Positions 5,732-37,371 of a stretch of DNA of 64,000 nucleotides are shown one piece after another. A program made the position numbers and the translations under genes. The notes below the pieces were generated by a model that was not told the DNA's origin, did not search any database, and was given only the letters and a program-made list of their open reading frames with translations. How positions within the stretch are numbered: the first letter of the stretch is position 1; the number at the start of each line of letters is the position of its first letter. The DNA is from a virus. The stretch lies in the IMG/VR virus record IMGVR_UViG_3300045988_136451; one strand, 5' to 3'.

Positions 5732-5744
5732 TTCTCACTCCTTC

Positions 5745-8440: not shown

Positions 8441-10049
8441 TCCACTCCATCATCCCGCCGACGAAGGCGTAGTCTATGTCCTCGCTGTGCATCGCTATCG
8501 CGTCGTCTATCGCGTCGGCGATGAACTGCACGGGGCCGTGGCCCGGATGCACCCAGCTCCTCGATTGGCGCGTCTCCGGCATAAGCTCGCCGTCCTGACC
8601 GCGCACCCAGTACGTCTTCTCGCCCTTGCGCCACTGGTTGATGTTCGTCACCTTGCGGAACACGAGCTGGCCGCCGATCACCATGGGGACGGTGTTGTGC
8701 GTGACTATGTAATCGTTCGTGACGTACAACCCGTCCGCACTATCGACGAGGATGCAACGGCACTCCTCGCGTCCGGAAAAGGAAACGCTCTTGAATCTCC
8801 TGCACCAACACTTTGCGCTCTGATGCGCAACGTTGTCAAGATAGCGCTTCAGCTTCTTTTCGTAAGGGGCGAGGAACGGCACAACGCCGTTGTCGAACCT
8901 CATCTCGACGATGTACGCCACACCGTTTCGATATTTGCCGCTGCGCCTGTCCTCGTGAATATACGCATGGCCTCCGAGCGAAAGCGCTAGGCTCCGCACC
9001 TGCACCGCGAGGTCGCGGCACACCGTGGTGTACTGGCATATCGCACCGCGAGCGGCGCACGAGCCGTCCGTGTCCATGAGGCCCTGCAATAGAAGGACGC
9101 GATCTTCGACGCACGAAAGCATGTACTCTTCTGGGATGGTCTTGCCGTATGCGTCATGCCCCCATAGTCCGAGCGACCTGAACGCATCTATGAGCGGCGA
9201 TGTCGAATTGCCGCCGCGCCCCCAACGCGACGGCGCGGCATTGTAGCCGGGAGCGCCGCACGCCAACGCTATTCTAGCTCCATCTTCAGCGACCGCATGG
9301 GGGGTGACGCACTCCGGCACGAACCTCATGAACGTGTCGATGCCAGCCCCGTCATAACAGCAGAAGTACGGATACGGCCCCCGGAGGCATCCATCGCCTA
9401 TCATCGCTCCGACAAAATATGGATGCAATGGAAGATCGCGCTTGTCGAACATGATCTTCGGGGCAAGACGGATGCGCCAGCTATCGCCGTGCGTCCTCCC
9501 TATCCTTCCCATGAAGTCTTCTAACGGCATCACCCGATCATCGACCCATGCCCCGTTGCGCCTGACAGACCATAAGTGCTCTTTCGTGCATCTTGTATGG
9601 CCGCCGTCCGTGAACTCGACATCGTAAACGTCGCACATGCCCTGATCGTAAACATCGATCACCTTCACAGGCGCTCCGTCCGAGCCGATGACCAAGCATC
9701 CCGGCTCTATCTCCCCCATCGGCTTGAAGCCGTCGGGCGTGAGCACCGGCTCCGAGAGCGGCTGCGCCTTCCCGTACAGGCTCTTCATCGGGAACGTCTG
9801 GAAGCCGTTCTCTTGGTAGATGAGGTAGTGGTGCTCCGGCACGATGCCGACACCCGCGTAGCCAGCCGCGTAGTCGGGCGACGGGTAGAACGCCATCCTG
9901 CCGCCCTTGAACGTGGCGAATATGCCGCTTCCGTACTCCGCCGCGAGGTCGCATGCGGTCTCCGAAACCATGTCGAGCACGCGGTTCGCCAGACTTGTCC
10001 CGGTTAGGGGCATGTCGGCGTAAACGTCCTCGATCACTCGCTCGTCCAC
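8430..10049 (-). CDS. Neck/head-tail joining protein (about 204 aa of flanking host sequence) interrupted by an intein
   Basis: The flanking host sequence is 117 aa before and 87 aa after the intein. Block A at the intein N-terminus reads CLVIGSDGAPVKVIDV. LAGLIDADG motifs FVGAMIGDGCL and LLQGLMDTDGSC are present. The C-terminal junction is VTHN followed by T. Confidence 0.5.
   Translation of the reverse strand: MDERVIEDVYADMPLTGTSLANRVLDMVSETACDLAAEYGSGIFATFKGGRMAFYPSPDYAAGYAGVGIVPEHHYLIYQENGFQTFPMKSLYGKAQPLSEPVLTPDGFKPMGEIEPGCLVIGSDGAPVKVIDVYDQGMCDVYDVEFTDGGHTRCTKEHLWSVRRNGAWVDDRVMPLEDFMGRIGRTHGDSWRIRLAPKIMFDKRDLPLHPYFVGAMIGDGCLRGPYPYFCCYDGAGIDTFMRFVPECVTPHAVAEDGARIALACGAPGYNAAPSRWGRGGNSTSPLIDAFRSLGLWGHDAYGKTIPEEYMLSCVEDRVLLLQGLMDTDGSCAARGAICQYTTVCRDLAVQVRSLALSLGGHAYIHEDRRSGKYRNGVAYIVEMRFDNGVVPFLAPYEKKLKRYLDNVAHQSAKCWCRRFKSVSFSGREECRCILVDSADGLYVTNDYIVTHNTVPMVIGGQLVFRKVTNINQWRKGEKTYWVRGQDGELMPETRQSRSWVHPGHGPVQFIADAIDDAIAMHSEDIDYAFVGGMMEWIDE
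8694..9698 (-). mobile_element. Intein with LAGLIDADG homing endonuclease (about 335 aa) in the neck protein gene
   Basis: Hint N-terminal block, two LAGLIDADG motifs, and a C-terminal HN followed by Thr at the +1 position. Boundaries were placed by residue counting and are approximate. Confidence 0.5.
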
Positions 10050-10059
10050 GGGGAGCCTC

Positions 10060-10773
10060 CTACGGCCAAGACGGCTCGGACTGCCACTTGCCGCCGCTCT
10101 GGTTGTCGGAGTTCATGAGCTGCGGCGGGTCGCATACGTGGTCGCGCGACACCGTGAGCGAGTGCGGAGCGCCGCCCCACAGCTCGTCGGAATAGCGGAA
10201 GTCGGTAGGGAGCAGCAGCTTCGCCGTCCCGCTCTGCGACACGAGCATGCGCTGCAAGTTGGTCGTCATCTCGGTGTTGTTCGACGACACAACGCCCTGA
10301 ATCGTCTGGTACTTCACGGGGCCGTCCAGCTGGAAGATGCGACCGCGAAGCGTCACGAGCGTGCCGGTCATCTCCAACACCTCGCACAGCAGGTCGCCGT
10401 CGTGGTAGATCGGCTCGACCGCCATCTTCACCGTAACGTCGAACTTCTCGCGCGTGCCGTGGTTGTCGTACTCGGTGTTGTCGCTGCCGTTCTCGTTCAC
10501 CACCATGCGGCGCATCTCCAAAGGGCGGTAGCCTCCGTCGAACGTCGTGCCGTAGCAGTTCGGGCAGTCGTTCGGTCGCTTCGACTGGTGGTTCACCTCG
10601 TCCCAGCAGACCGGGCAGCGCTTCACGAGGCCGTCCGCGAGGTCTTGCAGCGTCCACATGCGGCGCACGAGCCACGTTGAGCCGCACAGCCTCATGCCGT
10701 CCTCGACGGCCTTCCTCGTGTAGAGGACTTCGCGGGAGACGTGCCCCGCGTCCCAGTAGGCGACCCGTCCCAT
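10060..10773 (-). CDS. Hypothetical protein with zinc-ribbon motif (237 aa)
   Basis: Track ORF containing CPVCWDEVNHQSKRPNDCPNCYG. Confidence 0.3.
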   Translation of the reverse strand: MGRVAYWDAGHVSREVLYTRKAVEDGMRLCGSTWLVRRMWTLQDLADGLVKRCPVCWDEVNHQSKRPNDCPNCYGTTFDGGYRPLEMRRMVVNENGSDNTEYDNHGTREKFDVTVKMAVEPIYHDGDLLCEVLEMTGTLVTLRGRIFQLDGPVKYQTIQGVVSSNNTEMTTNLQRMLVSQSGTAKLLLPTDFRYSDELWGGAPHSLTVSRDHVCDPPQLMNSDNQSGGKWQSEPSWP

Positions 10774-10774
10774 C

Positions 10775-11347
10775 CTAGCGCCCCCACCAAGGCAGGGCCT
10801 TCTCGTAGGAGCGGAAGAAGGGCCATCCCAGAGAGGCGTAGGGGGTGGATGCCCAGTCGATGAGCGCGATGGTGTTGTGCGCCGCGCTCATGTCCTGAAG
10901 GACGGTGGACAGCTTCTTGCCCGCCTCCTTCAGCTGGTTCTGGTAGTCGGTCAGCACGGACTGCCAGCGGTTGAGGTAGTCGCGGCGCACCACGTCCGGC
11001 GCGCCGACGCGGGACGTGTCCGGTATCTCGACGTAGCCGATTATGTACTGGCGTATTATCTCGATCTTCAAGGCGACCTCGAACGCCGCCGACAGGAATG
11101 GAACCGCCCACGGGAACGACTGCATGTCCCAGTTCGCGCTGGGGTGCATGCAGTACGTCATGAGGGTGCCGAGCGCCGCCGGGACGAGGGCAGCGTCAGC
11201 GTCGATGCTGTACGGCGTTACCTCTTCCAGAAACGGCCCCCAGTCGTTGTTGTCGAACTGCATGGTGAAGTAGGCGGCGACGTTGCGCACCGCCGACTGC
11301 GCGCCCTCCGGCAGGTCTGCGAACTTTATGCTTCCCTCTATCTCCAT
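10775..11347 (-). CDS. Hypothetical head-tail connector region protein (190 aa)
   Basis: Track ORF; position only. Confidence 0.3.
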   Translation of the reverse strand: MEIEGSIKFADLPEGAQSAVRNVAAYFTMQFDNNDWGPFLEEVTPYSIDADAALVPAALGTLMTYCMHPSANWDMQSFPWAVPFLSAAFEVALKIEIIRQYIIGYVEIPDTSRVGAPDVVRRDYLNRWQSVLTDYQNQLKEAGKKLSTVLQDMSAAHNTIALIDWASTPYASLGWPFFRSYEKALPWWGR

Positions 11348-11377
11348 GGTGCAGGCTCCTTCCCGCCGCGCCCAGAA

Positions 11378-11959
11378 CTACTCGTTGTCGAACACGGGAC
11401 GCGCGTCTGCGGGCGCGAGGGGCGACGTGGCGGCCTCTGCGGGCTTGGAAGCGTCCGAACCCTCTCCTTCTGCGTTCCCCGCCTCTGCGGGCTTCACAGG
11501 TGCCTCTGCGGGCTTCTTGGCGGCCTTCTCGTCGGCCTTCTTCGCCGCCGCGCCGGTCTTCGTCCACTTCCCGTCGATCAGCTCGTAGTCGTCGGGATTC
11601 TCGTCCTTGTGGCGACCGCAGAAGCGCGGAGCGTCCTCGTACCTCTCGCCCTCCGCGAGCTGCACGACGGCGTTGCACGGGTTGCCGTTCTTGAACACTC
11701 CGGGGCAGTGCACGGTGGTAAGAACCTCGGTGTCGCCCGCGTCGATGAGGTCGGCGACGGTCTCCTGCTCCTTCGCGGCCTTCGGCTTCTCGCCGTCCAC
11801 GATCTCGACGTAGCCGAGCGACACGAGCGTTCTGATCGCAGTGTCGTCCTCCTTCGCGTCGATCAGCGCCACGGTCTCGCCGGGTGCGATCTGGCGCTGG
11901 CGCTTGCCGTCGTTGTAGGCGAAGTTCTGGAATGTCTTGGACACGTTCTTCAAAAACAT
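11378..11959 (-). CDS. Hypothetical protein (about 193 aa)
   Basis: Start adjusted to MFLKNVSKTFQNF, preceded by an AAGGAGA ribosome-binding site. Has a Lys/Ala/Glu-rich C-terminal tail. Confidence 0.35.
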   Translation of the reverse strand: MFLKNVSKTFQNFAYNDGKRQRQIAPGETVALIDAKEDDTAIRTLVSLGYVEIVDGEKPKAAKEQETVADLIDAGDTEVLTTVHCPGVFKNGNPCNAVVQLAEGERYEDAPRFCGRHKDENPDDYELIDGKWTKTGAAAKKADEKAAKKPAEAPVKPAEAGNAEGEGSDASKPAEAATSPLAPADARPVFDNE

Positions 11960-12041
11960 GGCTTTCTCCTTACTTGCGGGTTGACTTTCCCTTGGTTGCA
12001 AAGTCTACCTCAAAACGGGAAGACGTGCGACATGCGCGGTG

Positions 12042-12057
12042 TCGATTAAATAATCGA
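12042..12057. repeat. AT-rich 16-bp palindrome TCGATTAAATAATCGA (site 1)
   Basis: Perfect 7-2-7 palindrome in a GC-rich intergenic region, 5 bp upstream of a TTGACA -35 box. Confidence 0.8.
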
Positions 12058-12062
12058 GGCCC

Positions 12063-12090
12063 TTGACAGGCCGTGCCCCCCCCCATAACG
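12063..12090 (+). promoter_or_regulatory. Orphan poly-C promoter-like element (TTGACA, 7 nt, C9 tract 12076..12084)
   Basis: Same TTGAC(A/T)-N7-C9 architecture as the four array promoters at 50.5-52.1 kb. No plus-strand ORF follows, and the shared terminator lies about 55 nt downstream. Confidence 0.45.
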
Positions 12091-12139
12091 GTTCCTTCGG
12101 GCGGCCAGATCAACATAGTCAGGCTCCCGACACCGGCGT

Positions 12140-12170
12140 AAAAAAAAGAACCCCTCTCGCGAGGGGTTCT
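12140..12170 (-). terminator. Rho-independent terminator downstream of the major capsid gene
   Basis: Hairpin GAACCCCTCTCGCGAGGGGTTC followed on the minus strand by T8. A 33-nt identical copy lies downstream of the endolysin gene at 52715..52746. Confidence 0.7.
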
Positions 12171-12183
12171 TCTCTTGCTGCGG

Positions 12184-13137
12184 TTAAGCTACATTCAAGT
12201 CCATGCGGACGACACCGTAGGAGTTGGCGATGATCTCGTTGATGAGTTCGCTGTACACCCAGCCGATGGTGAAGTTCTCGGCCTTGGGGTTGTCCACGCC
12301 GTCGAGCTGCTTCAGAATCGGCATCCAGCCAAGATACTCCGGCTCCGGAACGAGGTAAATCTTGTTCATCGGGCAGATGATCGAGGTCATGATGGAGAAG
12401 CGGCCCATCTTGGTGATCGGCTTGCCGTCCATCACGTCGTCGAGGAACTTAACGCCCGTGGTGTCGAGCTTCCACTTGTACAGGTCGTTCGCCGTCGCCG
12501 GGTTCATGATGACGCGGTTGGACTGCAAGCGGTTCTGGATGGCGATCTTCTCGGCATCGTAGAACGCGCCGGGGTTGATCTCGCCGGTGACCGTGGTCAC
12601 ATGCGAGGTGAGGCCCGCCCAGTCCGGGTTTTCGGAGGTGATCTTGGACACGGCAGCGTCGAGCGAGGAGAACAGGTAGCCGTCCTCCTGCTCCATGATG
12701 CGCTGCTCGGCCTCGCCCTTGGCGTAGTCCACCATGTTGATGGCGAGCTTGTAGATGTCCTCCTCGGCGATCTGGGGGAACGCCGCGATGCGGATGACCT
12801 CGTAGCGTACGCGGTTGCCCTCGTACTGCGCGATCTTCACTTCGTTGTCGTGCGGTTGCAGCTTGTAGGCCGCGCCGAACTCGGTGGTGATGTCGTAGAA
12901 CAGGCCAGCGCCCTGCGGCAGCGGGTCTTCCATCAGAACGGAGCGCACGATGCCCTCGTAGCGGAGACGCATGATGATCGGGCCTACCACGCCCTGCGCG
13001 ACCTTGGTGGACGCGAGACGCATGTCGTGGCGGTTGTCCGTCAGAATCTTGTTGAGCGCCGCCTGACGCTTCGCGGGGGACGACGGTTTCGCACCCATCT
13101 CCGCGACGATCTCGGCGGAAGTCTTAGGCATTGCCAT
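12184..13137 (-). CDS. Major capsid protein (317 aa)
   Basis: Follows the scaffold-like and decoration-like genes and is followed by a strong terminator. Its size and position match a major capsid protein. Family not identified. Confidence 0.5.
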   Translation of the reverse strand: MAMPKTSAEIVAEMGAKPSSPAKRQAALNKILTDNRHDMRLASTKVAQGVVGPIIMRLRYEGIVRSVLMEDPLPQGAGLFYDITTEFGAAYKLQPHDNEVKIAQYEGNRVRYEVIRIAAFPQIAEEDIYKLAINMVDYAKGEAEQRIMEQEDGYLFSSLDAAVSKITSENPDWAGLTSHVTTVTGEINPGAFYDAEKIAIQNRLQSNRVIMNPATANDLYKWKLDTTGVKFLDDVMDGKPITKMGRFSIMTSIICPMNKIYLVPEPEYLGWMPILKQLDGVDNPKAENFTIGWVYSELINEIIANSYGVVRMDLNVA

Positions 13138-13161
13138 TTCTCTGCACCTTCCCTTCTTATC

Positions 13162-13671
13162 TTAGCGGGCGAACGTGACGATGAGGGTGGAACCCTCCAT
13201 GCCGAGCAGTTCGCAGATGGTGTTCTCGGTCTTGGTCTGCGGCGCGGTTTCGAGCGTCAGCAGGCCCTTGGCGTTGGACTTCAGGTAGACGTTCTTGCCA
13301 GCCTTCAGGTTGGCGATCTCCGCCGTCCAACCGGCGCCCGTGTCGTACGCCGGGGGATAGATGGCGAACTGGCTGTCTTCGCCGCCGACCCACACGCCCA
13401 TCAGGTTGAGGCCGTTTTCGCGCACCTCGTCGATGTTCATGCCGGGAGCGCAGAAGCTGTCTGCGAGGCCGTAAGGGGCCTTCGTGCCGTCGCACAGGGT
13501 CACAACGCCGTTGCCGAGATAGGACATGACGCAGCCGGGGAGGATGTCTCCGGATGCGGCGGTGAACGTCGGGTCGAGCGTCATGGACTGGTTGGTGGCT
13601 TGGGTCTTCGCGTACAGCGGCTTGATGGTGCGGTGCTGCAAGGGGTTGTTGGCAGGAACCATGAGTGCCAT
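13162..13671 (-). CDS. Head decoration-like protein (about 169 aa)
   Basis: Start adjusted to MALMVPANNPLQHRTIKPLYAKTQAT, with an AAAGGAG ribosome-binding site. Its N-terminus is paralogous to the product of 19626..20537 (TLKPLFTKTQAT). Confidence 0.4.
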   Translation of the reverse strand: MALMVPANNPLQHRTIKPLYAKTQATNQSMTLDPTFTAASGDILPGCVMSYLGNGVVTLCDGTKAPYGLADSFCAPGMNIDEVRENGLNLMGVWVGGEDSQFAIYPPAYDTGAGWTAEIANLKAGKNVYLKSNAKGLLTLETAPQTKTENTICELLGMEGSTLIVTFAR

Positions 13672-13694
13672 AGTAACCACTCCTTTCTTTCGTC

Positions 13695-14642
13695 TTAGTA
13701 GAGCGCACCGAGTTCGGTGCGGGTTGCGGATACGGCCTTGCTCGCGGTCTTCGCCGCGACGTGCCGGGCCGGTGCGACACCGGCGACGCGCTGGGCGCTG
13801 CCCACGGCGCGCAGCTTCTCGGTCGCCAGCTTCATGGCCTCGACGGAGTAGCGGTTGGCGTACTCCTCGCACACGGCGGCATCGCGCACCGTCGGGGCGA
13901 GGACACCTGCGGCCTTCTCGACCTTCACGAGGTCGAGCGCGGCGCAGAACGTCGCCTTGGCGGCCTCCACGGACGCGGGCGGCTTAACGCCCTCGCCGTT
14001 GTCCTTGGTGGTGCCGTCGGGGGCGATGGACTTCTCTTCGAGGTCGTCGGAAACGGCGACCTCGGTTGCCGTGTCCTTCTGCGGAAGATCGGGGGCCTCT
14101 GCGGTGTCCTTCACGAGGTCGTCGGAGATTTCGCCGTCGGCGGTCTCCGCCTTCTTGCCGCGAGAGGCCACGCGCGCCCTGCGCGCCAGCTTCTTCTTCG
14201 ACGCGCTGCGCTTGACAGCCGCTTCCACGGCATCCTCCACAGCGTCCTCGATGATCTCGGCCAGCTCCTCCTCCGGCAGCGCTGCGGCTTCCGGTATCGC
14301 ATCGACGATGGCCTGCACGGCCTCGTCGGAAACGGCATCGGCAACGTCGTCTGCCACGTCCTCCTCCTCGTCATCCACGATGCGCTCGATCTCCTCGGCG
14401 TGCTCGTCCTGCGCGATCTTGTAGGCACGGCGCTTCAGCTTGCGGGCGAAACGCTTTGCCTCCTTGTCGTCGTCGGTCACGTCCTTGGTCTCGGTCTCCG
14501 TGACTTCCTTGGTCTCGTCGTAATCCTCTTGGGAAGTCTTGGCCGTGGGGCGAGCGGACTTGGGCATGGCGGATGCGTTCTTGCGCTTGGCAGCGATGGA
14601 GGCCAGCATAGACCTGCGCTGCTCTGCATTGAGCTTACCCAT
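13695..14642 (-). CDS. Scaffolding-like protein (about 315 aa)
   Basis: Start adjusted to MGKLNAEQRRSML, with an AAAGGAG ribosome-binding site. Highly charged Glu/Asp/Lys/Ala-rich protein upstream of the capsid gene. Confidence 0.45.
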   Translation of the reverse strand: MGKLNAEQRRSMLASIAAKRKNASAMPKSARPTAKTSQEDYDETKEVTETETKDVTDDDKEAKRFARKLKRRAYKIAQDEHAEEIERIVDDEEEDVADDVADAVSDEAVQAIVDAIPEAAALPEEELAEIIEDAVEDAVEAAVKRSASKKKLARRARVASRGKKAETADGEISDDLVKDTAEAPDLPQKDTATEVAVSDDLEEKSIAPDGTTKDNGEGVKPPASVEAAKATFCAALDLVKVEKAAGVLAPTVRDAAVCEEYANRYSVEAMKLATEKLRAVGSAQRVAGVAPARHVAAKTASKAVSATRTELGALY

Positions 14643-14822
14643 GTAACGCTCCTTTCGTGAAACTAGTGTCTCCTGAACGTGCACGCATGGTGCACGGCTC
14701 CATTTTGACACATACAGAAAATCGCGCAACATAGAAAGCGCCCCTCCGAAGAGGGGCGCTGCCGGTCTACCACTGGCCGTTCGGCTTATCAGGCTCGTTT
14801 CAACCCACGCCCTCGCGGGCGA

Positions 14823-15092
14823 CTAATCGTAGAAGTACAGTATGCTGCTGTCGTCGGTCACCATCGACGGGCTTACGCCGCCCCTATCGACGAACGGGTC
14901 GAGCACGGGCGTTGTGAACACCGCGTCGCCCTTCACGAAGTAATGCTCGCCGTCGGCGTAGAACGTGTCGTCCCACCTCGTCGATTCGAGCGCGCGGACG
15001 AACGCGTTGTCCGCCGGGGTGCTCCTGTCCCAAGCCTCGCGCAGGAAGTTGTAAAGTTCGAGGTCTGTCATCGCAAGCCCCTTCCTACGCAC
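14823..15092 (-). CDS. Hypothetical protein (89 aa)
   Basis: Track ORF. Confidence 0.3.
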   Translation of the reverse strand: MRRKGLAMTDLELYNFLREAWDRSTPADNAFVRALESTRWDDTFYADGEHYFVKGDAVFTTPVLDPFVDRGGVSPSMVTDDSSILYFYD

Positions 15093-17931: not shown

Positions 17932-17989
17932 GCTCGCTCCTTCAAAAGTCCGAAGGGGAGGGGCCTCGCCCTCCCCTGAAAGCTGTCTC

Positions 17990-19615: not shown

Positions 19616-19625
19616 CTTTCTCTCC

Positions 19626-24227: not shown

Positions 24228-24592
24228 CGCTTTTCGCCTCCCTTCGAGGAGCTTGCTTCGTCCTTCGAGCCTCCGAACTTCGATTCGAGCGAGTTTATGA
24301 TCTGCTCCAATATCATGGGGGCTATGATGGCCGAAGAGAAGGCCGTCCAGATCGACTGATCGACTATCACGCCGACCGCGCCGCCCATTATCAGCGACGC
24401 TACGAAGCCGAGATGGACGTACACGCCTCCGTCGTCCTTGCGCTCGATGCGCAGCGGAAGCTCCAAGCAGCCGTCGTTCACGCAGATGTCGCGGACGAAC
24501 GCACCGCAAGCACCGGCGAGGAACAGGAACAAAGCCTGCTCGAAGCTGGTTATCTCGCTCATGTGCACGAGCGATGCGAAAAGTTCGTCCAC
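24224..24592 (-). CDS. Small membrane protein (122 aa)
   Basis: Track ORF with two to three hydrophobic segments. Confidence 0.35.
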   Translation of the reverse strand: MDELFASLVHMSEITSFEQALFLFLAGACGAFVRDICVNDGCLELPLRIERKDDGGVYVHLGFVASLIMGGAVGVIVDQSIWTAFSSAIIAPMILEQIINSLESKFGGSKDEASSSKGGEKR

Positions 24593-24607
24593 GCTACGCT
24601 CCCTTCT

Positions 24608-28500: not shown

Positions 28501-28805
28501 ACGGGGTTGGTCTTCATGATGACCTCAACGCCGTCGAGGAGGTTCTTCCTCGCCTCCTCGTTGTGGTCGATGTCCATGTAGTTGTTGTAGCCGTAGCCTC
28601 TAAGGCCGATGCGCTTCTGGCGCGCCGGGTCGAATATGCGCGGTATGGCGAACTCCGCCCCCGGCTCCCCGAACGCCGCCGTGTGCTCGAACTTCGAGCT
28701 TGCCGGTGCCGCCTGCTCAACGAGCACGCGAAGATGGGACGCGTCGTGCGCCTGCACCTGACGGGTGGGGAGGTTGACTATCGCCTTCTTGCCTTTAGAT
28801 TCCAT
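25584..28805 (-). CDS. Portal protein (about 675 aa outside the intein) interrupted by an intein
   Basis: Large protein downstream of the terminase region with an acidic C-terminus. The intein is inserted after residue 105. Confidence 0.5.
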   Translation of the reverse strand: MESKGKKAIVNLPTRQVQAHDASHLRVLVEQAAPASSKFEHTAAFGEPGAEFAIPRIFDPARQKRIGLRGYGYNNYMDIDHNEEARKNLLDGVEVIMKTNPVMRACHPAGTLVDVEGSLVPIEDVAVGDEVKTHAGRYRKVLETMAFGYDGDMYSFKVHQSDSELRCTEDHNLYVFRRTGGTTYLDGALPEGEYKWVSASEVRIGDYLVMPVGKSVEDVERIVAKRDVEWVQGSYKTKTGKVVPPTKSKRSMRLEIKANADFFRFVGYHLSDGAASGNRTSICFGAHEVEYVDDVKRICRECLGIEAKARRDGRRNMWVVDVNSAPLAQWLRDEFLCGAHSKRIPLWVQELPIEKQRQLLVGFFRGDGCNGKNEIVMNSVSRDLVNGLAAISIRCGYEVCVKWPRNCMFERFVADNEKASIVQTSLGAVRYSGASACSFRDDNGIRHEREKRPYSRVSLGFLSGDYMHFAVKSVSVERFEGAVYNLEVDEDHSYLADGFASHNCLEVYARYPTAGAHLECKNKDVKDFFEQIFFEDLDYENFLIDVGREYWQYGEVFANGVWDDSLGIWTGEELLDPRQMEIIRVPFSSENILKFVPDEDMKRIVNSMDVAGRIFEEENPEFAELVKTGKDILISPDRCVHLANKDSVRDLHGTPVALRAWNTLRLEERLQSAMLATADRMYAPLLLFSLGGNLADGSPYIPSPNAIATFRTRLDEALSSDFRALVTNQFVNVQEVIRGDKMANFKNDIDMYDDRLFMAWGLSSSILKPASGPYATSAMEFELASQMLRSYQKCLCELYNRRAAFVAEANGIYDYDIIGGVKIDKTEWREVWDESVNDGEGGYVIKEVPKLLYPELRMETINFNTTEKTRDFLMQLQKQGVPIARQAFFMGTDIDYRATAEQASQDAIHDAVQRAEEHAAIFRACVEKGVPVPPDTVKFMKDGIAPLEEQELLKKIAPKEDDGKDGPFGKSPEEEAVSQLEAVTDVVDEEEYAPGDGARPDVSDERREDMDAPGTFAAKGGDIPHEAARSAMKDVGSTKRSVVANHRASVRSKRTASLVEQGVPLVAEDGGDE
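27297..28490 (-). mobile_element. Intein with LAGLIDADG homing endonuclease (about 398 aa) in the portal gene
   Basis: Begins CHPAGTLVDVEGSLVPIEDVAVGDEVKTH. Motifs FVGYHLSDGAA and LLVGFFRGDGC are present. Ends ASHN followed by C. Confidence 0.6.
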
Positions 28806-31155
28806 GGACTTCGCATCCTATCTCCTTGTAGCTGCTGCCGTCGCTTAGTATGTACGGCTTCACGCTGTACTCGACCTCGCTGTTCATCAGCGTGGCGCTC
28901 GACTGCTCCAACCGCAGCGCGTTCTTTCCGCTAATTATACAGTCTTCAACGGTGAACCCGTCGCAATCGTAGAGGTACACGCCGGTGTCCACCGCCCGGT
29001 AAGAGTAGTAGACGGTGTTGGAAAGCTCGGAGACGGTGCCCTGCTTGTCTATCGCCCCTATGCGGAACGCGTTGTCCTTCGAGGAAAGGGCGGTCTCCAT
29101 GAACACGACGGTGCCGTAGCTCGCCTTGCCCTTGCGCCAATCCGTCGCCGCCAGACCGTTCACGTAGATTCGGTACTTGTAGTACGTTCCGTCGTCCGTC
29201 CACGGCGCGCCCTCGCTCGCCGGGTTGAAGGCGAGTATCGCCTTCGAGCTGTCGGTTGACGAGCGCGTGACCGTGAGCAGCACCGGCGGCTTCACGTGCG
29301 GCGGGTTGTACTGGTACTCCACGCGCCCCGGCACGCTGGCCCAGTCGTTGTACGCCGTGACCGTGAAGGTCGTCAGCTCGACCTCGAACCAATCGACGGC
29401 CAGCGTGTAGTCGGTCTGCCCGCTCACGTATTGGACGGTGAACGAGCGCGAGTTCACGTTGTTGGTTATCACGAACCGCGTGGGGGCAACGTCGATGATC
29501 GCGGAGAACGACAGCACCAGCTTCGTTATCTCCCGATCTTCGTAGTTGTTGTCCTGACGCGCGCGCACCCAGTTGAAGCCCATGGGAGGGCTTTTCAGCG
29601 TGAGGGTGGCGCTGTAGGGCGAGTATCGACCGGACACGGAGCTGTAGACGCGCGCCCTCACGTAATAGGTGAGGTACTGCGTCGTGAGCGAGCCGTTGAA
29701 CGATGTCCACGTGCTGTTGTTCGTCGAGTATTCGAGCTGCACGACCGAGCTGTAGGTGTTTCCAGCGTCGTTCTTCGACGATGCGGACAGCGACGTGCCG
29801 GAGCGCGAGCCTGTCGGGGTCGCCGGGGCGTAGAGGGTGCCGTACCCCGTGACGCTGCCGGAGTTCGCCGTGCCGCCCGTGCCGTACGCCTGCACGTACA
29901 CGCTGCCGGTCTTGCCCTTGATCGAGGAGGGCCAGCTGATCGAATAAGATGCGCCGGAAACCGCGCCCGAAGCGCTCGCCACCGTCTTGACCAGCGAGCC
30001 GCCAGCGTAGATTCTGAACCCCGTTCGCGGCTTCGACGCGGTTGGCGCGTTCGCCGAGAACGTGACGGTCGCCGTCGTGTCGGTGACCGACGAGAGCGAA
30101 AGGCCGTAGGGAGCGTCGGGCGCTACCGCGCCGTTCGCCAGCGAGACCGTCGATATGCTTCCCGCGAAGCCGTCGAGGTGCGCGTACGTCGCGTAGCTCG
30201 CTTTGTCGGAGCGCTTCCAAGCGGCGTAGCTCGACACCTGCACGAGGCTGAACTTCTTCGTCTCGTAGCCGCCCGTGGTGCTCCAAATGCTCGCGTTGCT
30301 GTAGGTCGCAACGCCGGGTTCCAGCTTCGCAAGCAGCTTCGCGCTGCCAGCGTTCAGCTTGCCGTTCGAGGAGACGGACACCGTTCCCTCGTAGATGTAG
30401 GTGTAGTAATCGGTGAGCGACTGGGTGTTCTTCCACGTGAACGTAGCCCCGAACGTGGTGTTCGCCTTGACCGAGAAGCCGGTGGGGGCGCTCGGCCTCG
30501 TCAGGAGCGCAACGGTCTGCGACAGCTTCCAAGAGCCTGTCTTGCCGTACGTCGCTATCCTTCGAGAGCTGACGTTGCCGTTCGCGCTCACGCTGTTCGT
30601 CCACGGGTTGGCGCTGATCTGCGAGCCAGACCATCCCGGAGATGCCGCGTCGCTGCCGAACACGGCAACGTCAACGTTCGTCTGCGTGGCGGGTGCCTGC
30701 GCGGTCGAATGCGTGTCGTACGCAAGGCTCTCGCTCGTGCCGTTCGACGACGTGTACGACGTGATCGTCGGGGTCGCCTGCGTCGCCCAAGTAGCGTCGA
30801 AGTAAGTCCTGAAGTCGGGAATATCGACGGAGCCTGTCACGTTCGACGAGCCGGAAACGCCGCCGTCGCAGAACGTCGTGTAGTAGTCGGCATCGTAGCC
30901 GGGGTACAGCGTCACGCTCCACGTCTGGCTCCCGCTGCCAGCCTCGGTGTTGCTCCACGAGAACCGATGGGAGTTCCCGCCGATGGTGACGTTCACGTAC
31001 CTCTCGTCGGAGTAGAGCCACGCGTTGTAGGTCTCGTAGTAGGCCGTGACCCTGAACGTGACTGCGGTGCCGGAGCGGGACGTGACCGACGTATCGACGT
31101 AGAAGCGAACGCCCCATCCTCCCTTGTTGTACGCAGACCAGCCGGAGTTAGCCAT
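28795..31155 (-). CDS. Ser/Thr-rich repeat protein with fibronectin-III-like modules (786 aa), possible fibre or depolymerase body
   Basis: Track ORF whose ATG overlaps the stop of the upstream beta-helix fragment (ATGGCTAA). Confidence 0.4.
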   Translation of the reverse strand: MANSGWSAYNKGGWGVRFYVDTSVTSRSGTAVTFRVTAYYETYNAWLYSDERYVNVTIGGNSHRFSWSNTEAGSGSQTWSVTLYPGYDADYYTTFCDGGVSGSSNVTGSVDIPDFRTYFDATWATQATPTITSYTSSNGTSESLAYDTHSTAQAPATQTNVDVAVFGSDAASPGWSGSQISANPWTNSVSANGNVSSRRIATYGKTGSWKLSQTVALLTRPSAPTGFSVKANTTFGATFTWKNTQSLTDYYTYIYEGTVSVSSNGKLNAGSAKLLAKLEPGVATYSNASIWSTTGGYETKKFSLVQVSSYAAWKRSDKASYATYAHLDGFAGSISTVSLANGAVAPDAPYGLSLSSVTDTTATVTFSANAPTASKPRTGFRIYAGGSLVKTVASASGAVSGASYSISWPSSIKGKTGSVYVQAYGTGGTANSGSVTGYGTLYAPATPTGSRSGTSLSASSKNDAGNTYSSVVQLEYSTNNSTWTSFNGSLTTQYLTYYVRARVYSSVSGRYSPYSATLTLKSPPMGFNWVRARQDNNYEDREITKLVLSFSAIIDVAPTRFVITNNVNSRSFTVQYVSGQTDYTLAVDWFEVELTTFTVTAYNDWASVPGRVEYQYNPPHVKPPVLLTVTRSSTDSSKAILAFNPASEGAPWTDDGTYYKYRIYVNGLAATDWRKGKASYGTVVFMETALSSKDNAFRIGAIDKQGTVSELSNTVYYSYRAVDTGVYLYDCDGFTVEDCIISGKNALRLEQSSATLMNSEVEYSVKPYILSDGSSYKEIGCEVHGI

Positions 31156-31615
31156 GGTTTCCCCTCAACGTCATGCGGTATATGCCGGAGCGCGAGCCGC
31201 TTACCGACAGTATGGCGGAATCTTCCCCGGCCTTCTGCTTCAGAACGGTGTGCTCCTTGCTCTGACCTTCGAGCGACACGTTCCCGCTCACGACGATGCG
31301 CGTCACGACGTACACGCCGATGGAGAACTCGACTATCCCGCCGCCGAATCCCTCAACGTAGTCGATGGCCGACTGTATCGCCAGCGTGTCGTCGGCTATG
31401 CCGTCGCCCTTCGCGCCGAAGTCGGCGACGGACGCGTGGCGAAGCCCCGATTCGTACGCCGAAACGCTTATGGGGAGGGCGGACAGGTCGTTGCCCATCG
31501 CTATCGACAGGTAGTCGTCGTACGGCATCGACACCGAGGCGTTCGGGGCTATCGACTTGTCCCCGACCTGAATGCGGTAGTTCGCCAAGTTGCGTATTTC
31601 CATGAAACGAAGCAC
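31148..31615 (-). CDS. Pectate-lyase-like beta-helix N-terminal fragment (155 aa)
   Basis: Carries FGAKGDGIADDTLAIQSAIDY, a hallmark of the pectate lyase and tailspike superfamily. It is too short to form a complete beta-helix and continues in another frame as 28795..31155. Confidence 0.4.
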   Translation of the reverse strand: MLRFMEIRNLANYRIQVGDKSIAPNASVSMPYDDYLSIAMGNDLSALPISVSAYESGLRHASVADFGAKGDGIADDTLAIQSAIDYVEGFGGGIVEFSIGVYVVTRIVVSGNVSLEGQSKEHTVLKQKAGEDSAILSVSGSRSGIYRMTLRGNHG

Positions 31616-31700
31616 TGGCCGCCCTTTGCCCTTCTCTCGCTTTTACCCGATAATTGTACTCAAAACAAGGTCGCTCGGATAGCGGCCCGGAAGGAGCGCC

Positions 31701-32048
31701 ATGAAGTACAGGGTTGACGATATATTCGCAACGCCGAGCGAGCAGGCGCGCGGCCTCATGTTCAGGGAGGACTATCCGGAGGACGCTTGCGCCGCGTTCC
31801 TCTACCACGACGAGCCGCGCGTGCTGTCGTTCCACGGGCGCAACTGCCTGTTCCCGATCATCGCGGCGTTCTTCAGGAAGGACTTGACGCTCGACTGCTG
31901 GCACGTCCTCGAACCCGACGGGGAACCGGCCTCGTCGGTCGGCGAATGCTCCCTCGTCGTCGAGGTCAAGGCGACCGAGCGCAACATCGCGGTCGTCTCG
32001 CAGTGCGTGAGGGCCGCAATCGACAAGAACTGCATATCCCTCCTGTAA
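31701..32048 (+). CDS. Small plus-strand moron, DUF192-like (115 aa)
   Basis: The only plus-strand gene in the 0-50 kb block. Motifs GLMFRE and NCLFPIIAAFF are present, and the gene has its own terminator. Confidence 0.3.
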   Translation: MKYRVDDIFATPSEQARGLMFREDYPEDACAAFLYHDEPRVLSFHGRNCLFPIIAAFFRKDLTLDCWHVLEPDGEPASSVGECSLVVEVKATERNIAVVSQCVRAAIDKNCISLL

Positions 32049-32054
32049 AACGAA

Positions 32055-32074
32055 AGAGGCCCCTCACGGGGCCT
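32055..32074. terminator. Bidirectional hairpin terminator GAGGCCCCTCACGGGGCCTC
   Basis: Lies between the convergent genes 31701..32048 (plus) and 32092..32469 (minus). A T-rich tract follows the hairpin on the minus strand. Confidence 0.5.
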
Positions 32075-32091
32075 CTCGCTGCCTCTTACGG

Positions 32092-32469
32092 CTATTCTTT
32101 CTTCGCGTGCTTCGCCTCGCCAACGTCCTCGGCCTCGCCGCCGATGGGCAGCTCCGCCTTGTCGTCGCTTGTGAAGTGAAAGAACTTGTCGAGCCATTCG
32201 TCTGTAACGCCAATCGCCTTGAACAGGTTGTAAGCCGCCTGAACTCCGCCCACCACGGCGGCCACCCAGAGCACGAACGTCTCCGGTGTCGGCGCTCCGC
32301 TGATGAAGGCGGTGAAAACGCCAGCGGCCAGCGATATGACCACGGCTATCGTCCAGTTGACCTTCTTAGACCAACCGCCGCGCTTGACGAGCTGAACGAC
32401 ATAGGGCAGGAAAAGCGAGAAGAACACGGCAGCGATAGCCGGAACCCACGCCTCGAAACCCTCGAACAT
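32092..32469 (-). CDS. Small membrane protein, holin-like (125 aa)
   Basis: Three hydrophobic segments and a charged C-terminus. Confidence 0.3.
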   Translation of the reverse strand: MFEGFEAWVPAIAAVFFSLFLPYVVQLVKRGGWSKKVNWTIAVVISLAAGVFTAFISGAPTPETFVLWVAAVVGGVQAAYNLFKAIGVTDEWLDKFFHFTSDDKAELPIGGEAEDVGEAKHAKKE

Positions 32470-32539
32470 AGCGTCTCCTCTCTTCGGGGTCTTTCCGCCC
32501 CGCCTCGCGGGGCCTTCGGGACATTATACGCCGAAGCCG

Positions 32540-35527
32540 CTACAGGCCGCCACACCACGGCCTCCCGGCCCATCCGTCGGTGAGGCCCATCTGCCTCTCG
32601 AACTCCATGGAGCGCTCGAAGTAGAACTGCTCCTTCGCAAGGTTCTCCCTCATGCCGACCTCCGGCATGTAGCCGCCCTGCGCCGCGCCGGTGATGCGCA
32701 GCAGGGTTCCCTCTCCAAGCGCCTCGACCTGATCTGACAGGAGGTTCACGCACACCGTCGAAACGCAGTCCGCCATGTCGTTGTGACAGTTTCCGGAAAT
32801 GAGAATCTTGCCGTTCCTGCGCGTGACAAGCGTTCCATTTTGAACCTCGAAGCAATACACCATGCCGTCGTATCGGCTTATATCGACCTTACTTCTCTCA
32901 ACCGCCGATTCTTTGCGACCGAGAAGGCATATTTCGTGAAATTCCCCGCCCGACGGCGTTTTGCAATCATAGTATGACGTTGCGGTTCCGTTTGTCATAA
33001 ATACGGCCTGCATCGCATCGGCAACGCCCTTGTCCTTTATCCCCGCTCTGATGTAAGCGTTCTTGTCCTTGCTAAAGGTGCCGTCTCCATGCAGGAAGCC
33101 ATCTATGAAGCAGTCCTGCTCCTTCTTGCCCCATTCCACGAAAATCTCCGAAGGTATTGCAAGGTCACCAGCTCCATCGAAAAACCTTTCCAGCGTCCAG
33201 TCTGCAAGCCATTTGCTATACACCTTGTATTCGTATAGCACTTTCCTCTGATATCCGCTTTTCTTGCACTCTCGTTTAGACCACTCGAAGCCAGACCCAT
33301 CAAGAGCCGCCTCGATATACACGATTCCATCTTCCTTCGACTGCGAGATTATAAAAACTCCATCACGCCGAAGCGCAATCTTTCCGCCATCCGCCAACCA
33401 GAAACCGACGATCCTTGCAAAGCAGCCGAAATCAACTCCGCTCGGAAGATCGACCAAAGCACCTGCATTCCCGTTTTCACCACACCTTGGGATGAAGAAC
33501 TTAGACCGATTGGCCAAGATGCCATCAATAGGGGACTTCATAAGCTCAGTCATCTTCCCGTGGTTGCACAGCCTGTACAGCATCCTATGATTCGGTGTCA
33601 CCTTGAAATCGACAAGACGGTTCGAGTATCCGTACATTTCGCCATGGTACTCGTATGCGATTTTCCTGATCGGCTGCTGCCACTCGATCTTGCCGTCCTT
33701 TGAATACGTTGCGACGCGTCTGCCCATGACGGCATCTTTGAACAGAACCCATCCATCCTCCGTCAAAACCTCCGTTGCGGCATCGTGACATACGTCGCCC
33801 GTCTCCGGGTGGTCTACCTTCTTGCCGTTCTTCAGGATGAGGAACTTCAGCTCCTTCTCCAACATGCACACCTCGCCGAGACCCAGTATGTCGTCTATCA
33901 CGAACGGGGCGTGAACCCATCCTTGGTAGAGGGCCTGCTTGAACCGCTCCCAGCGCTTCATGTTCTTCTTCTCGGTGGCGGTGTCCTCCTCGATGACGAC
34001 CGAGCCGTTGAGGAACGTCCCCATCGTCCTCTCCAAGTTCAGCGTGTCGATGAGCGACGCGCTCTGGTACTGGTCGAACGTGCAGCGGACGATGTTGAAC
34101 AGCTTCAGGTACTCGATGATCTGCTTCTGCACGACCGTGTAGTTGATGCGCCGAACGCCGTGCTCGTCGGGAGGGAAGTCCTTCGCTTGGAAAATCTTCT
34201 GCACGTCGATGAAGGCGTGGAAGAAGCCGTCCTCGCACAGCTCCTTGTGGCCGATTGCTATGCAGAAGTTGTCGTTCACGCGCCCAGCGTCGCAGTGCAT
34301 GACGTACTGGCGGTCGATGCGCCCGTGCCTAGCCGGGACGTTCGCGTTGCCCTGAAGGTCTGGGTACGCGTTGAACATCTTCTCAACCATGTCGGGGTTC
34401 AGGTACGCGTCCTGCGACTTGGCGAACTGCGCGCGGTACTCAACCCTGAACTTCTCCGGGTCGCGCTCCTCCTCCATGGCGAACGATTCGTCCTGCTCCG
34501 GAGGAAGCAGCAGGGGCTTGCCTATCGCCGGTACGTACTGGCCGTCCGTGAACAGCTCCCACGACGGCGCTTGCATGCAGAACATGTCGGGGTGCTTCGA
34601 GCTGCCGTCCTCGTCGCGCTCGAAGGCGTTCTTGAACAGCTTGTAGAACATGCCCACCTCCGACACGGGGGTGGACGGGACGACTATCATGGCCTCCTTG
34701 CCGACCTGACGCAGCGACGGCGTTAGGGCCTTCCAGATCGCCTCCGACGATGCCTTCAGGCCGTCGTCGCGACCGTAGGCGAACTCGTCGTACGCCTGTA
34801 TGATCGAGGCGTTGCCTCGCGCGGAATCGGGGTTGGCGGCCTTCGGCTCGACGAGAAGCGATGCCCTGCGCCTTATGTTCTTCCTGATGCCCGATTCGAT
34901 CTGCCGCATCTCCTCGCGCTCGTTGAACACCTTGTCCGCAGCCGTTTCCAGCTTTATCGCGGTCTCGGACAGCGAGCTAGTCCACGGGTCGAACCACGAG
35001 CACTCTATGATGGTGTTCAGGATGTCGAGGTACAGCGCGGACTTCGCTTGGCTGAACGTCGTCGCCATGACATCGACGTGCATCTCCTTGCCGTCCGGCA
35101 GGTGGAGGACGCGCTGGGGGTTGCCGAGCGAGAGCATCTGGGCCAGCTTGTAGTCGATGAGGTGCGACACGGTGAAGCCCTTTGAGCCGCGTCGCCCGAG
35201 GCAGAAGATGTTCTCGCGGAAGTGCTTGTATCCGCGCTTCTTCAGCCACTCGATGCGGTCGAAGATGTCGAGCGGAATCTTCACCGGGCCGCCGTTGCGC
35301 GTGCTCTCGCGCCACCCTTCTATCACTTGGAAGTCGTACCGGTTCATCTGGTCGATCTCCAAGAAGATGATCTTCATGAGCGTCTTCTGGCGGGGGTACA
35401 GCGGTGTCCATTGCAGGGACGGCGTGTACATGTCGTAGAAGTCGCAGATCGGCGGGAGCCGTTCGAGCGCCAGCTTCGGGGCCGCCAGCGACGAGAAGAC
35501 ATCTATGCCGTGCTTGATCTCGCCCAT
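32540..35527 (-). CDS. terL: Terminase large subunit (about 661 aa outside the intein) interrupted by an intein
   Basis: Walker A-like motif GRRGSKG and Walker B-like motif IIQAYDEF. The intein is inserted in the C-terminal nuclease domain. Confidence 0.65.
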   Translation of the reverse strand: MGEIKHGIDVFSSLAAPKLALERLPPICDFYDMYTPSLQWTPLYPRQKTLMKIIFLEIDQMNRYDFQVIEGWRESTRNGGPVKIPLDIFDRIEWLKKRGYKHFRENIFCLGRRGSKGFTVSHLIDYKLAQMLSLGNPQRVLHLPDGKEMHVDVMATTFSQAKSALYLDILNTIIECSWFDPWTSSLSETAIKLETAADKVFNEREEMRQIESGIRKNIRRRASLLVEPKAANPDSARGNASIIQAYDEFAYGRDDGLKASSEAIWKALTPSLRQVGKEAMIVVPSTPVSEVGMFYKLFKNAFERDEDGSSKHPDMFCMQAPSWELFTDGQYVPAIGKPLLLPPEQDESFAMEEERDPEKFRVEYRAQFAKSQDAYLNPDMVEKMFNAYPDLQGNANVPARHGRIDRQYVMHCDAGRVNDNFCIAIGHKELCEDGFFHAFIDVQKIFQAKDFPPDEHGVRRINYTVVQKQIIEYLKLFNIVRCTFDQYQSASLIDTLNLERTMGTFLNGSVVIEEDTATEKKNMKRWERFKQALYQGWVHAPFVIDDILGLGEVCMLEKELKFLILKNGKKVDHPETGDVCHDAATEVLTEDGWVLFKDAVMGRRVATYSKDGKIEWQQPIRKIAYEYHGEMYGYSNRLVDFKVTPNHRMLYRLCNHGKMTELMKSPIDGILANRSKFFIPRCGENGNAGALVDLPSGVDFGCFARIVGFWLADGGKIALRRDGVFIISQSKEDGIVYIEAALDGSGFEWSKRECKKSGYQRKVLYEYKVYSKWLADWTLERFFDGAGDLAIPSEIFVEWGKKEQDCFIDGFLHGDGTFSKDKNAYIRAGIKDKGVADAMQAVFMTNGTATSYYDCKTPSGGEFHEICLLGRKESAVERSKVDISRYDGMVYCFEVQNGTLVTRRNGKILISGNCHNDMADCVSTVCVNLLSDQVEALGEGTLLRITGAAQGGYMPEVGMRENLAKEQFYFERSMEFERQMGLTDGWAGRPWCGGL
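32789..33790 (-). mobile_element. Intein with LAGLIDADG homing endonuclease (about 334 aa) in terL
   Basis: Begins CHDAATEVLTEDGWVLFKD. Motifs FARIVGFWLADGG and FIDGFLHGDGTF are present. Ends ISGN followed by C. Confidence 0.55.
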
Positions 35528-35528
35528 G

Positions 35529-35948: not shown

Positions 35949-35982
35949 AAGTGAAACGGCGCTCCCGCGCCAAGTCGATTCC

Positions 35983-36207
35983 CTATGACGGGCCGTTGCC
36001 CATGTACCGCTCCGTCCAGTCGCCTATCTCGTCGTCGCGGTTGGCGTAGCCCCCGCAGTTGCCGGAGTTCGGTTCGACGATCAGCTCCGGAACGTCGGCA
36101 TCGCAGGCGCAGCCGAAGAAGCAGACGGCGAAGTTGTTCACGCCGTCTATCCTCCTCCCGTGGAAGCACGAGAAGCACGACTGTTTCCTGTTGCCCGCCT
36201 TTTTCAA
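35983..36207 (-). CDS. Small Cys-rich protein (74 aa)
   Basis: Track ORF. Confidence 0.25.
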   Translation of the reverse strand: MKKAGNRKQSCFSCFHGRRIDGVNNFAVCFFGCACDADVPELIVEPNSGNCGGYANRDDEIGDWTERYMGNGPS

Positions 36208-37367: not shown

Positions 37368-37371
37368 CTCC

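Follow-up and report, generated by a model that had tools for sequence, protein, structure and literature searches.

In a 2025 survey of actinobacteriophages 784 inteins were counted, spread over 19 host proteins and as many as seven to a genome (Cane17); neither a head protease nor a neck protein figures among its extein types, and class 3 inteins occur in four host types only (bioRxiv 10.1101/2025.01.02.630785). Inteins of class 3 are defined by a Trp (B:12), a Cys (F:4), a Thr (G:5), a first residue that is not a nucleophile and a +1 residue that is Thr or Ser, and have been described in helicase-like ATPases, mostly in P-loops (PMC2807308); for those of actinophages, extein switching by way of nucleotide-binding motifs has been proposed. 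Here we describe four in-frame insertions in four virion genes of a 64,000-nucleotide stretch of viral DNA, IMG/VR record IMGVR_UViG_3300045988_136451, the whole of which is referred to as the window. The interrupted genes encode the large terminase subunit (TerL), the portal, a head-maturation-protease-like protein and a probable head–tail joining (‘neck’) protein, and the insertions are very probably mobile LAGLIDADG inteins that must splice if their host proteins are to work, three of them belonging to class 1 and one to class 3. As such the phenomenon is already known, and this phage is a solid, previously unannotated example of it, not a new kind of element.

Four interrupted virion genes and their phage

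The insertions are found, as first reported, on the minus strand, at 32789..33790 (TerL; 334 residues, C...GN|C), 27297..28490 (portal; 398 residues, C...HN|C), 22064..23227 (protease; 388 residues, C...HN|C) and 8694..9767 (neck protein; 358 residues, with Ala as residue 1 and HN|T at the end). Their limits were set from the terminal motifs and the junctions were checked against homologues without the insert, of which between 14 and about 320, depending on the protein, align straight across the junction. The ranges proposed in the initial annotation prove exact to the base for TerL, portal and protease; for the neck gene the 3' limit of 8694 is right and the 5' limit has to be moved from 9698 to 9767. 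All four host open reading frames continue in frame across the insert with no stop codons, and the insert ends carry intein blocks A, B, F and G. At the C-terminal junctions (HN|T in the neck protein, HN|C in the protease, HN|C in the portal and GN|C in TerL) the predicted HN or GN followed by Cys or Thr is seen throughout. An N-terminal Cys had been ascribed to every insert and is present in those of TerL, portal and protease, the neck insert beginning with Ala; the string IEDVAVGDEV, likewise thought to recur in each, occurs in the protease and portal inserts and is missing from the other two.

Each insert contains the two LAGLIDADG motifs expected of it, and the acidic residue is kept in all eight motifs, namely E310 and D414 of the protease precursor, D272 and D367 of the portal precursor, D713 and D815 of the TerL precursor, and D125 and D234 in the numbering of the neck intein. 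None of the inserts has shrunk to a mini-intein, and their families comprise hundreds to thousands of relatives. Among curated profiles, the neck and portal inteins exceed the cut-off of Pfam LAGLIDADG_3 and those of protease and TerL fall short of it, and the portal and protease inteins alone exceed that of NCBIfam intein_Cterm, so that the profile hits anticipated earlier extend to three of the inserts and not to that of TerL, for which none exceeds its cut-off. Because intein-less homologues fix every junction, the possibility that the segments are ordinary conserved domains of their host proteins is excluded: homologues without the segments exist in each case, the insertion points are clean in all four genes, and the junction residues are all present. 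No further intein was found in the window when five inteins were compared by phmmer with all six-frame open reading frames and ten other large open reading frames were searched against Pfam.

The window shares about 99.4% identity with Eggerthella phage LE2-3 (MW679026.1; 111,961 bp; origin, activated sludge, Cork; listed host, Eggerthella lenta DSM 2243), the only phage record matched by megablast, which aligned with window positions 1..58414 at 99.1–99.6% identity. In a whole-record alignment positions 1..63462 are collinear with LE2-3 69102..5413 at 98.6–99.6% identity with few indels, one of which is exactly the TerL insert. The window, with a G+C content of about 63% and all four intein-bearing genes on its minus strand, very probably comes, by this similarity, from a lytic myovirus of E. 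lenta of the same species as LE2-3. LE2-3 holds three of the four inteins and lacks that of TerL, and a further IMG/VR relative, IMGVR_UViG_3300045988_116257, has the portal and protease inteins and lacks the TerL one. The LE2-3 features LE23_82, LE23_71 and LE23_67 correspond to window 8430..10049, 20528..23641 and 25584..28805. In GenBank the first of these, the neck-module gene, is named ‘PhoH family protein’ and the second, the protease gene, ‘tRNA synthetase’; none of the four inteins of LE2-3, including one in DnaB described below, is annotated in the record, and the papers on E. lenta phages that were consulted mention neither inteins nor LE2-3.

Each of the four genes would be translated as a single precursor from which the intein then excises itself. 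For the TerL, portal and protease inteins a class 1 route is proposed, in which Cys1 would undergo an N-to-S acyl shift, the N-extein would be moved to Cys+1, the terminal Asn would cyclise and an S-to-N shift would give the peptide bond. We infer that splicing occurs in all four precursors; a host strain is listed for LE2-3, whose genome holds three of the four inteins and that of DnaB, and if the phage was propagated on this strain they must splice. The inserts are also predicted to be active as homing endonucleases, which would cleave the intein-free alleles of co-infecting relatives, repair then copying the intein plus a few flanking bases into the cut allele. Every intein lies within a conserved motif, the sites being VDHP...HNDxxD in TerL, a point five residues past the putative catalytic Ser in the protease, an N-terminal motif in the portal and LYGK|T(V/I)PM in the neck protein, and for this reason the unspliced precursors are probably inactive and virion assembly would need all four reactions.

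The intein of the neck-module gene

The neck-module gene (8430..10049, minus strand) encodes a precursor of 539 residues, made up of a 181-residue extein and the 358-residue intein, and an identical precursor is found on a contig of 115.7 kb. The tail sheath gene (5745..7718; Pfam Phage_sheath_1C) follows two genes downstream, and gp40 of Rhodococcus phage Finch occupies the same position relative to its own sheath gene. The name ‘neck protein’ given at the outset relies on this gene order, and the head–tail joining role is put forward as no more than probable; profile and fold searches did not supply a function. The extein matches only PHROG 2819, a family for which the function is not known, and has no Pfam hit and no Walker A pattern. 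The AlphaFold2 model of an intein-free allele was poor, with a predicted local-distance difference test score (pLDDT) of 64 from 13 sequences, and when compared by Foldseek it matched nothing significant in the PDB and only uncharacterised phage proteins in BFVD.

We place the start of this intein at Ala95 (AQPLSEPVLTPDG), which is 23 residues or 69 nucleotides before the Cys chosen earlier, because intein-less homologues join SLYGK to TVPM. The direct junction is seen in 14 such homologues, an allele of 98% identity included. Alignment with Finch gp40, the 23 disputed residues having been kept in the query, gaps out exactly these residues, and in thirteen metagenomic neck homologues of 162–198 residues LYGK joins T(V/I)PM with no gap. 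The intein thus delimited begins with Ala (AQPLSEPVLTPDGFKPMGEI) and ends ...DYIVTHN|T. Its Ala1 is encoded at 9765..9767, Trp66 of the block B motif TKEHLW at 9570..9572, the block-F Cys338 at 8754..8756, Thr356-His357-Asn358 at 8694..8702 and Thr+1, which is Thr453 of the precursor, at 8691..8693, and the LAGLIDADG motifs lie at 9387..9422 and 9060..9095 (LAGLIDADG_3, 29.9 bits against a cut-off of 22.5), all on the minus strand. All the residues that define class 3 are therefore in place, and by its sequence the intein is assigned to that class. Of the inteins with solved structures, 6BS8 and 6RIX, both class 3 inteins of DnaB, match it best (E of about 2e-5 for the Hint domain), in alignments that pair HLW with HQW, RCILVD with RCVEVD and THN with THN. 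Splicing should accordingly follow the class 3 route, in which the block-F Cys338 would attack the Lys94–Ala95 bond, the N-extein would be passed to Thr+1 and Asn358 would cyclise.

A search of 5.8 billion proteins found 207 relatives of the neck intein. Among the full-length relatives Ala1 is conserved in 88/95, the Trp in 94/95 and both the Cys and the Thr in 95/95, and the +1 residue, scored in 96, is Thr in 83 and Ser in 11. The host proteins of these relatives are in their great majority P-loop NTPases (PhoH, terminase, DnaB, AAA_30 and Cas4-like nucleases), and in the P-loop hosts the intein is placed after the Walker A lysine (...GK|T). The neck intein is likewise inserted at Y-G-K|T, though its host is not a P-loop protein. 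That its relatives sit mainly in PhoH and other P-loop proteins explains the ‘PhoH family protein’ label in the LE2-3 record, and the ‘tRNA synthetase’ label of the LE2-3 protease gene is probably a similar artefact. Seven other metagenomic neck homologues have a related intein (35–52% identity) in this same position, flanked by M[KR]xLxGK|TIPM. In a neighbour-joining tree computed with our own code the eight neck inteins form one clade with a bootstrap of 143/200, which we regard as moderate support for a separate neck lineage.

An intein-free allele of the neck gene, 181 residues long and 98% identical (P0021; Logan contig, locus L008, ERR10101914), allows the junction to be compared directly with window 8664..9797. 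Between this allele and the spliced window gene there are 14 nucleotide differences, nine of which fall between -4 and +23 of the junction; the intein-free allele has Val in place of Thr+1 and seven mostly silent changes within 23 nucleotides downstream of the junction, its site reading GGAAAA|GTCGTCCCAATGCTT. The cluster of substitutions could be the trace of co-conversion, or it could make the site resistant to the endonuclease. An allele with Val at +1 could not support splicing, and this one looks, as judged from the sequence, like a homing-resistant, splicing-incompatible ‘immune’ allele.

A fifth intein, also of class 3, is present in the DnaB gene of LE2-3, outside the window (MW679026.1 95260..97605; 31397..33742 in our locus L002). 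With a length of 348 residues and an identity of 33% to the neck intein, it interrupts the Walker A motif (APTGKGK|AQPL...THN|TWFA); the genome from which the window derives probably carries it too, which would bring its total to five. A recent direct jump between DnaB and the neck gene within this phage was considered and rejected, in view of the dissimilar homing-site DNA, the 33% identity and the clade that the neck inteins form of their own. The two homing sites have only GGxAAG|AC in common and agree at 19/60 bases, and since they are barely alike the move of this intein lineage into the neck protein must be old, not recent.

The inteins of the terminase, portal and protease genes

The TerL precursor (32540..35527, minus strand) has 995 residues, of which 661 belong to the extein and 334 to the intein. 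After splicing, the extein is matched by PHROG 2, 9 and 17415, each a family of the terminase large subunit, and its LE2-3 orthologue, annotated as terminase, is itself 661 residues long; as with portal and protease, the original assignment of the host protein agrees with the PHROG matches of the spliced extein. Where LE2-3 reads ...KVDHPETGDV-THNDMADC the window has ...ETGDV|CHDAAT...ILISGN|CHNDMADC, an insert of exactly 1002 nucleotides that is absent from LE2-3, in which the site is GGCGACGTT|ACCCACAACGAC, and from IMGVR_UViG_3300045988_116257. None of 240 related phage terminases aligned across the site has an insert there. The intein (32789..33790) has the features of class 1, with Cys1, a block B of TPNH, a block-F Cys (VYCFEV), Gly-Asn and Cys+1, and its LAGLIDADG motifs lie at 33383..33418 and 33077..33112. 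Its G+C content is 0.506, against 0.613 for the extein. Only 7/1986 nucleotides differ between the spliced window gene and that of LE2-3, and four of these are at the junction, where GTT ACC is changed to GTA TGT and the +1 residue from Thr to Cys. Window and LE2-3 are sisters relative to the intein-less metagenomic relative, and because they are closer to each other than to it a single gain of the intein is favoured; judged from these sequences, the TerL intein is a recent acquisition. The exact 995-residue precursor occurs on eight metagenome contigs from several samples, so this allele circulates in nature.

The TerL intein matched no curated intein profile and, by sequence, no solved structure, and in the phage collection its relatives are at most 27% identical and lie in other host proteins. 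The family to which it belongs occupies many hosts and has common termini, CHDxxTEVLT...VYCxxVPNxTLVTRRNGKxLISGN|C/S, with C1, T65, H68, C313 and N334 invariant. A penultimate Gly, where class 1 has His, is found in 16/18 aligned relatives, and together with the block-F Cys it is a family trait and not damage. A penultimate Gly is known in phage inteins as a variation that is tolerated and supports splicing (PMC5050341), and it does not remove the intein from class 1. The AlphaFold2 model of the TerL intein (pLDDT 83; predicted template-modelling score, 0.84) has the TliVMA intein 7QSU (E=7e-15), endonuclease-bearing VMA inteins and PI-SceI as Foldseek matches, and predicts a fold of Hint plus LAGLIDADG domains. 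The insertion site is at residue 579/661 of the extein, between two invariant Asp residues in the motif VDHPxxGxV|xHNDxxDC of the C-terminal domain, which we take to be the nuclease domain. The term ‘nuclease motif’ would here be founded on conservation, PHROG names and general knowledge of terminases.

The portal precursor (25584..28805, minus strand) comprises 1073 residues, 675 of extein and 398 of intein. Its spliced extein matches PHROG 2833, portal, across the junction (E=1e-78), and 227 phage portals align over the junction without a gap, those of Phrappuccino, ValleyTerrace and Bacillus phage G in detailed ungapped alignments. The intein (27297..28490) is of class 1, with Cys1, a block B of TEDH, His-Asn and Cys+1, and has LAGLIDADG motifs at 27984..28019 and 27699..27734. 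It is matched by LAGLIDADG_3 (28.2 bits, cut-off 22.5) and Intein_splicing (33.4 bits) from Pfam and by intein_Cterm from NCBIfam (31.6 bits, cut-off 15.6), and it aligns with PI-PkoII (2CW7) at E=4e-7, both LAGLIDADG motifs included.

The head-maturation-protease-like precursor (20528..23641, minus strand) has 1037 residues, with an extein of 649, acidic in its C-terminal half, and an intein of 388. Across the junction, its extein when spliced gives matches to PHROG 18299, head maturation protease (E=2e-25), and to PHROG 2774 (E=5e-49). Phage homologues without an intein, about 320 in all, were aligned across the site, among which gp90 of Alice and gp53 of Phrappuccino, both mycobacteriophages, give a detailed ungapped alignment. 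Conserved VNH and SMG motifs contain an invariant His80 and Ser134, 54 residues apart, which resemble a prohead-protease catalytic pair on grounds of conservation, PHROG names and general knowledge. The intein (22064..23227) is again of class 1, with Cys1, a block B of TDEH, His-Asn and Cys+1, and LAGLIDADG motifs at 22706..22741 and 22394..22429; its G+C content is 0.498, against 0.625 for the extein. It scores 26.6 bits with intein_Cterm (cut-off 15.6), and its hits to Intein_splicing, Hom_end_hint and Hint_2 of Pfam are below cut-off. The inteins of protease and portal are distant paralogues (26% identity, E=3e-24), and the alignment of each with PI-PkoII extends through both LAGLIDADG motifs, with the Asp or Glu kept. 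By their residues both are canonical inteins of class 1.

The protease intein is inserted at SMGLN|C, five residues past the putative catalytic Ser. A search of 1.84 billion cluster representatives yielded 6919 relatives, the closest of which (44–57% identity) are in homologous proteases at a neighbouring site, SMG|C, two residues upstream and directly behind the conserved motif. This site is used by 70/127 full-length relatives, SMGLN|C by one other, and a third site, eight residues past SMG, by one. The spacing from SMG to CSxCG is seven residues in every aligned sequence and the alignment is otherwise ungapped. Since intein-less homologues have Ala or Val at both site positions, the +1 Cys must travel with the intein. 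The neighbouring sites could reflect a shifting of the intein site or repeated invasion at nearby Cys codons. We also noted, at 12760..16935 of the one further portal-related IMG/VR locus that has an intein-like open reading frame (L080, IMGVR_UViG_3300048594_000019), a frame of 1392 residues that matches the N-terminus of the protease intein (E=1e-19).

Mobility, regulation and known systems

Several results weigh against reading the inserts as mobile inteins in named virion proteins. A joining role is given to the neck protein by gene order only. For the TerL intein a donor was sought in 5.8 billion proteins, with one close match, a fragment of the same allele, and otherwise identities of at most 29%. 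Neither the intein-less TerL together with a five-sequence profile of its C-terminal domain nor the spliced N-terminal domain of the protease has a meaningful match in the PDB or Pfam. Set against these, two of the four inteins, those of TerL and the neck protein, show presence/absence polymorphism.

It is possible, though on balance doubtful, that some of the inteins are decaying remnants that still splice, have dead endonucleases and pass on by vertical descent only. The portal and protease inteins are present in all three related genomes (the window, LE2-3 and the metagenomic relative), where they appear fixed with no current homing visible, and the G+C contents of the portal (0.596) and neck (0.593) inteins, beside about 0.62 for the host genes, would suit long residence or a donor of similar composition. 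However, the retention of the acidic residue in every LAGLIDADG motif and the lack of any reduction to a mini-intein speak against decay, as do, for TerL and the neck gene, alleles that differ in the presence of the intein and in changes confined to the junction.

The initial annotation had raised the idea that splicing acts as a regulatory checkpoint. In its most explicit form, splicing through Cys thiols would make virion assembly conditional and switchable by oxidation or thiol status. For one class 3 intein, Msm DnaB1 (structure 6BS8), splicing is reported to be sensitive to redox conditions. Each of the four reactions depends on Cys as a nucleophile, that of block F in the neck intein and Cys1 and Cys+1 in the other three, and the TerL intein family keeps an extra block-F Cys; the inteins sit in conserved motifs, with precursors probably inactive, and the listed host of LE2-3, E. 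lenta, is described in the literature as anaerobic. But two of the inteins are dispensable in near-identical genomes, that of TerL in LE2-3 and the metagenomic relative and that of the neck gene in the P0021 allele. Moreover, in the nearest other species (identities of 68% for TerL, 68% for the portal and 76% for the protease N-domain) none of these three genes is interrupted, a pattern of selfish homing and not of a conserved regulator, and condition-dependence cannot be read from sequence. It is this dispensability and absence that favours parasitism over a regulatory function, and we consider a checkpoint improbable. Little credence can likewise be given to the wider proposal that five Cys-dependent reactions, the four described and that of the LE2-3 DnaB intein, must all succeed before virions form in a phage of a strict anaerobe and so gate replication and assembly by the thiol or redox state of the host; were it true, oxidative stress or a drop in thiols in the host would reversibly stall both. 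The evidence better supports an account in which a class 3 lineage specific to P-loops jumped into a structural protein that is no ATPase and happens to offer G-K|T, the neck intein being the record of this move.

That the inserts are lineage-specific domains, free-standing endonuclease genes or introns is scarcely credible, since curated intein profiles that are absent or below cut-off for the TerL insert and the neck Hint domain count for little beside uninterrupted reading frames, segments precisely missing from homologues, the terminal intein blocks, the same termini on relatives in unrelated host proteins and the Hint plus LAGLIDADG fold of the TerL model.

Some further features of the window were also noted. 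An additional segment in the calcineurin-like phosphoesterase gene of LE2-3 (LE23_22) was examined as a candidate intein and rejected; it corresponds to a plain in-frame deletion of 582 nucleotides in the window (about 58400..58414), with a 15-nucleotide overlap at its borders, that takes out most of the gene. Within the head-gene module, the open reading frame 17990..19693 (minus strand) encodes a 567-residue protein with an ArdA antirestriction domain that has about 80 N-terminal codons fewer than in LE2-3, owing to an indel of about 240 nucleotides near 19590. At 39529..39947, in the open reading frame 39121..40062 (minus strand), a cassette has been replaced, with 419 nucleotides in the window and 825 in LE2-3. 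The gene 46733..50485 (minus strand) encodes a tail-fibre-like protein of 1250 residues with collagen triple-helix repeats (Pfam Collagen, E=3e-37); it has internal DNA repeats and lies in the stretch of highest G+C content in the window (0.70). A tRNA gene at 59457..59538 (minus strand), labelled tRNA-Cys in LE2-3 and flanked by ordinary tRNA-Arg(cct) and tRNA-Met genes, is given a four-base anticodon, ‘cgcc’, by ARAGORN and has an anticodon arm of 18 nucleotides against the 11 expected by the Rfam tRNA model; a short intron or an enlarged anticodon loop could account for this.

These results correct the public entry for a gut phage in culture, as the ‘PhoH’ and ‘tRNA synthetase’ products of LE2-3 become an intein-bearing neck-module protein and head protease. 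The catalogue of phage inteins gains two hosts, a head maturation protease and a neck-module protein, a terminase site in the C-terminal domain, and a class 3 intein in a non-ATPase protein. Natural pairs with and without an intein, otherwise 99.5% (TerL) or 98% (neck) identical, could offer a way to quantify homing, co-conversion and what splicing costs in a phage that infects an anaerobic actinobacterium of the gut.

An intein load of this size, called unusual at first, is so only locally: an intein-like open reading frame lies within 10 kb in 2/79 portal-related IMG/VR loci (1.28 Mb), one of the two belonging to the same species, but with seven inteins on record in a published actinobacteriophage genome the load is notable and not unprecedented. 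Close parallels are found in the mycobacteriophages of cluster C1 (seven inteins in Cane17, six each in Blubba and Colt), which are large actinobacterial myoviruses with homologous portal, protease and TerL proteins and which, like the phage described here, combine several LAGLIDADG inteins of classes 1 and 3 in one genome. They differ from it in that its host is a gut anaerobe of the Coriobacteriia and in that the C1 homologues of portal, protease and TerL that were sampled have no insert at these three junctions. Mycobacteriophage terminase inteins (TerL1-a to -e, TerL6-f and Pham3880-g) share the large terminase as host and the lack of a penultimate His, but all seven sites are in the N-terminal ATPase domain (PMC5050341), whereas that of the window is in the C-terminal domain. 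With PI-PkoII, PI-SceI and the VMA inteins, archaeal and yeast elements of solved structure, the present elements share the two-domain architecture and both LAGLIDADG motifs, the match being one of sequence for the portal and protease inteins and of fold for that of TerL; identities in the fold alignments are 10–16%, and those inteins have other hosts in other organisms. The neck intein has most in common with the class 3 DnaB inteins (Bethlehem; M. smegmatis DnaB1, 6BS8, 6RIX), namely Ala1, the Trp, the Cys, Thr-His-Asn, Thr+1 and the GK|T site. In contrast to the solved DnaB structures, which are of mini-inteins, it is full-size with a LAGLIDADG domain, and unlike the DnaB proteins its host is a 181-residue protein of the virion module with no Walker A or ATPase signature. 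As read from its sequence and site, the neck case fits the proposal of extein switching and would extend it to a protein that is not an ATPase.

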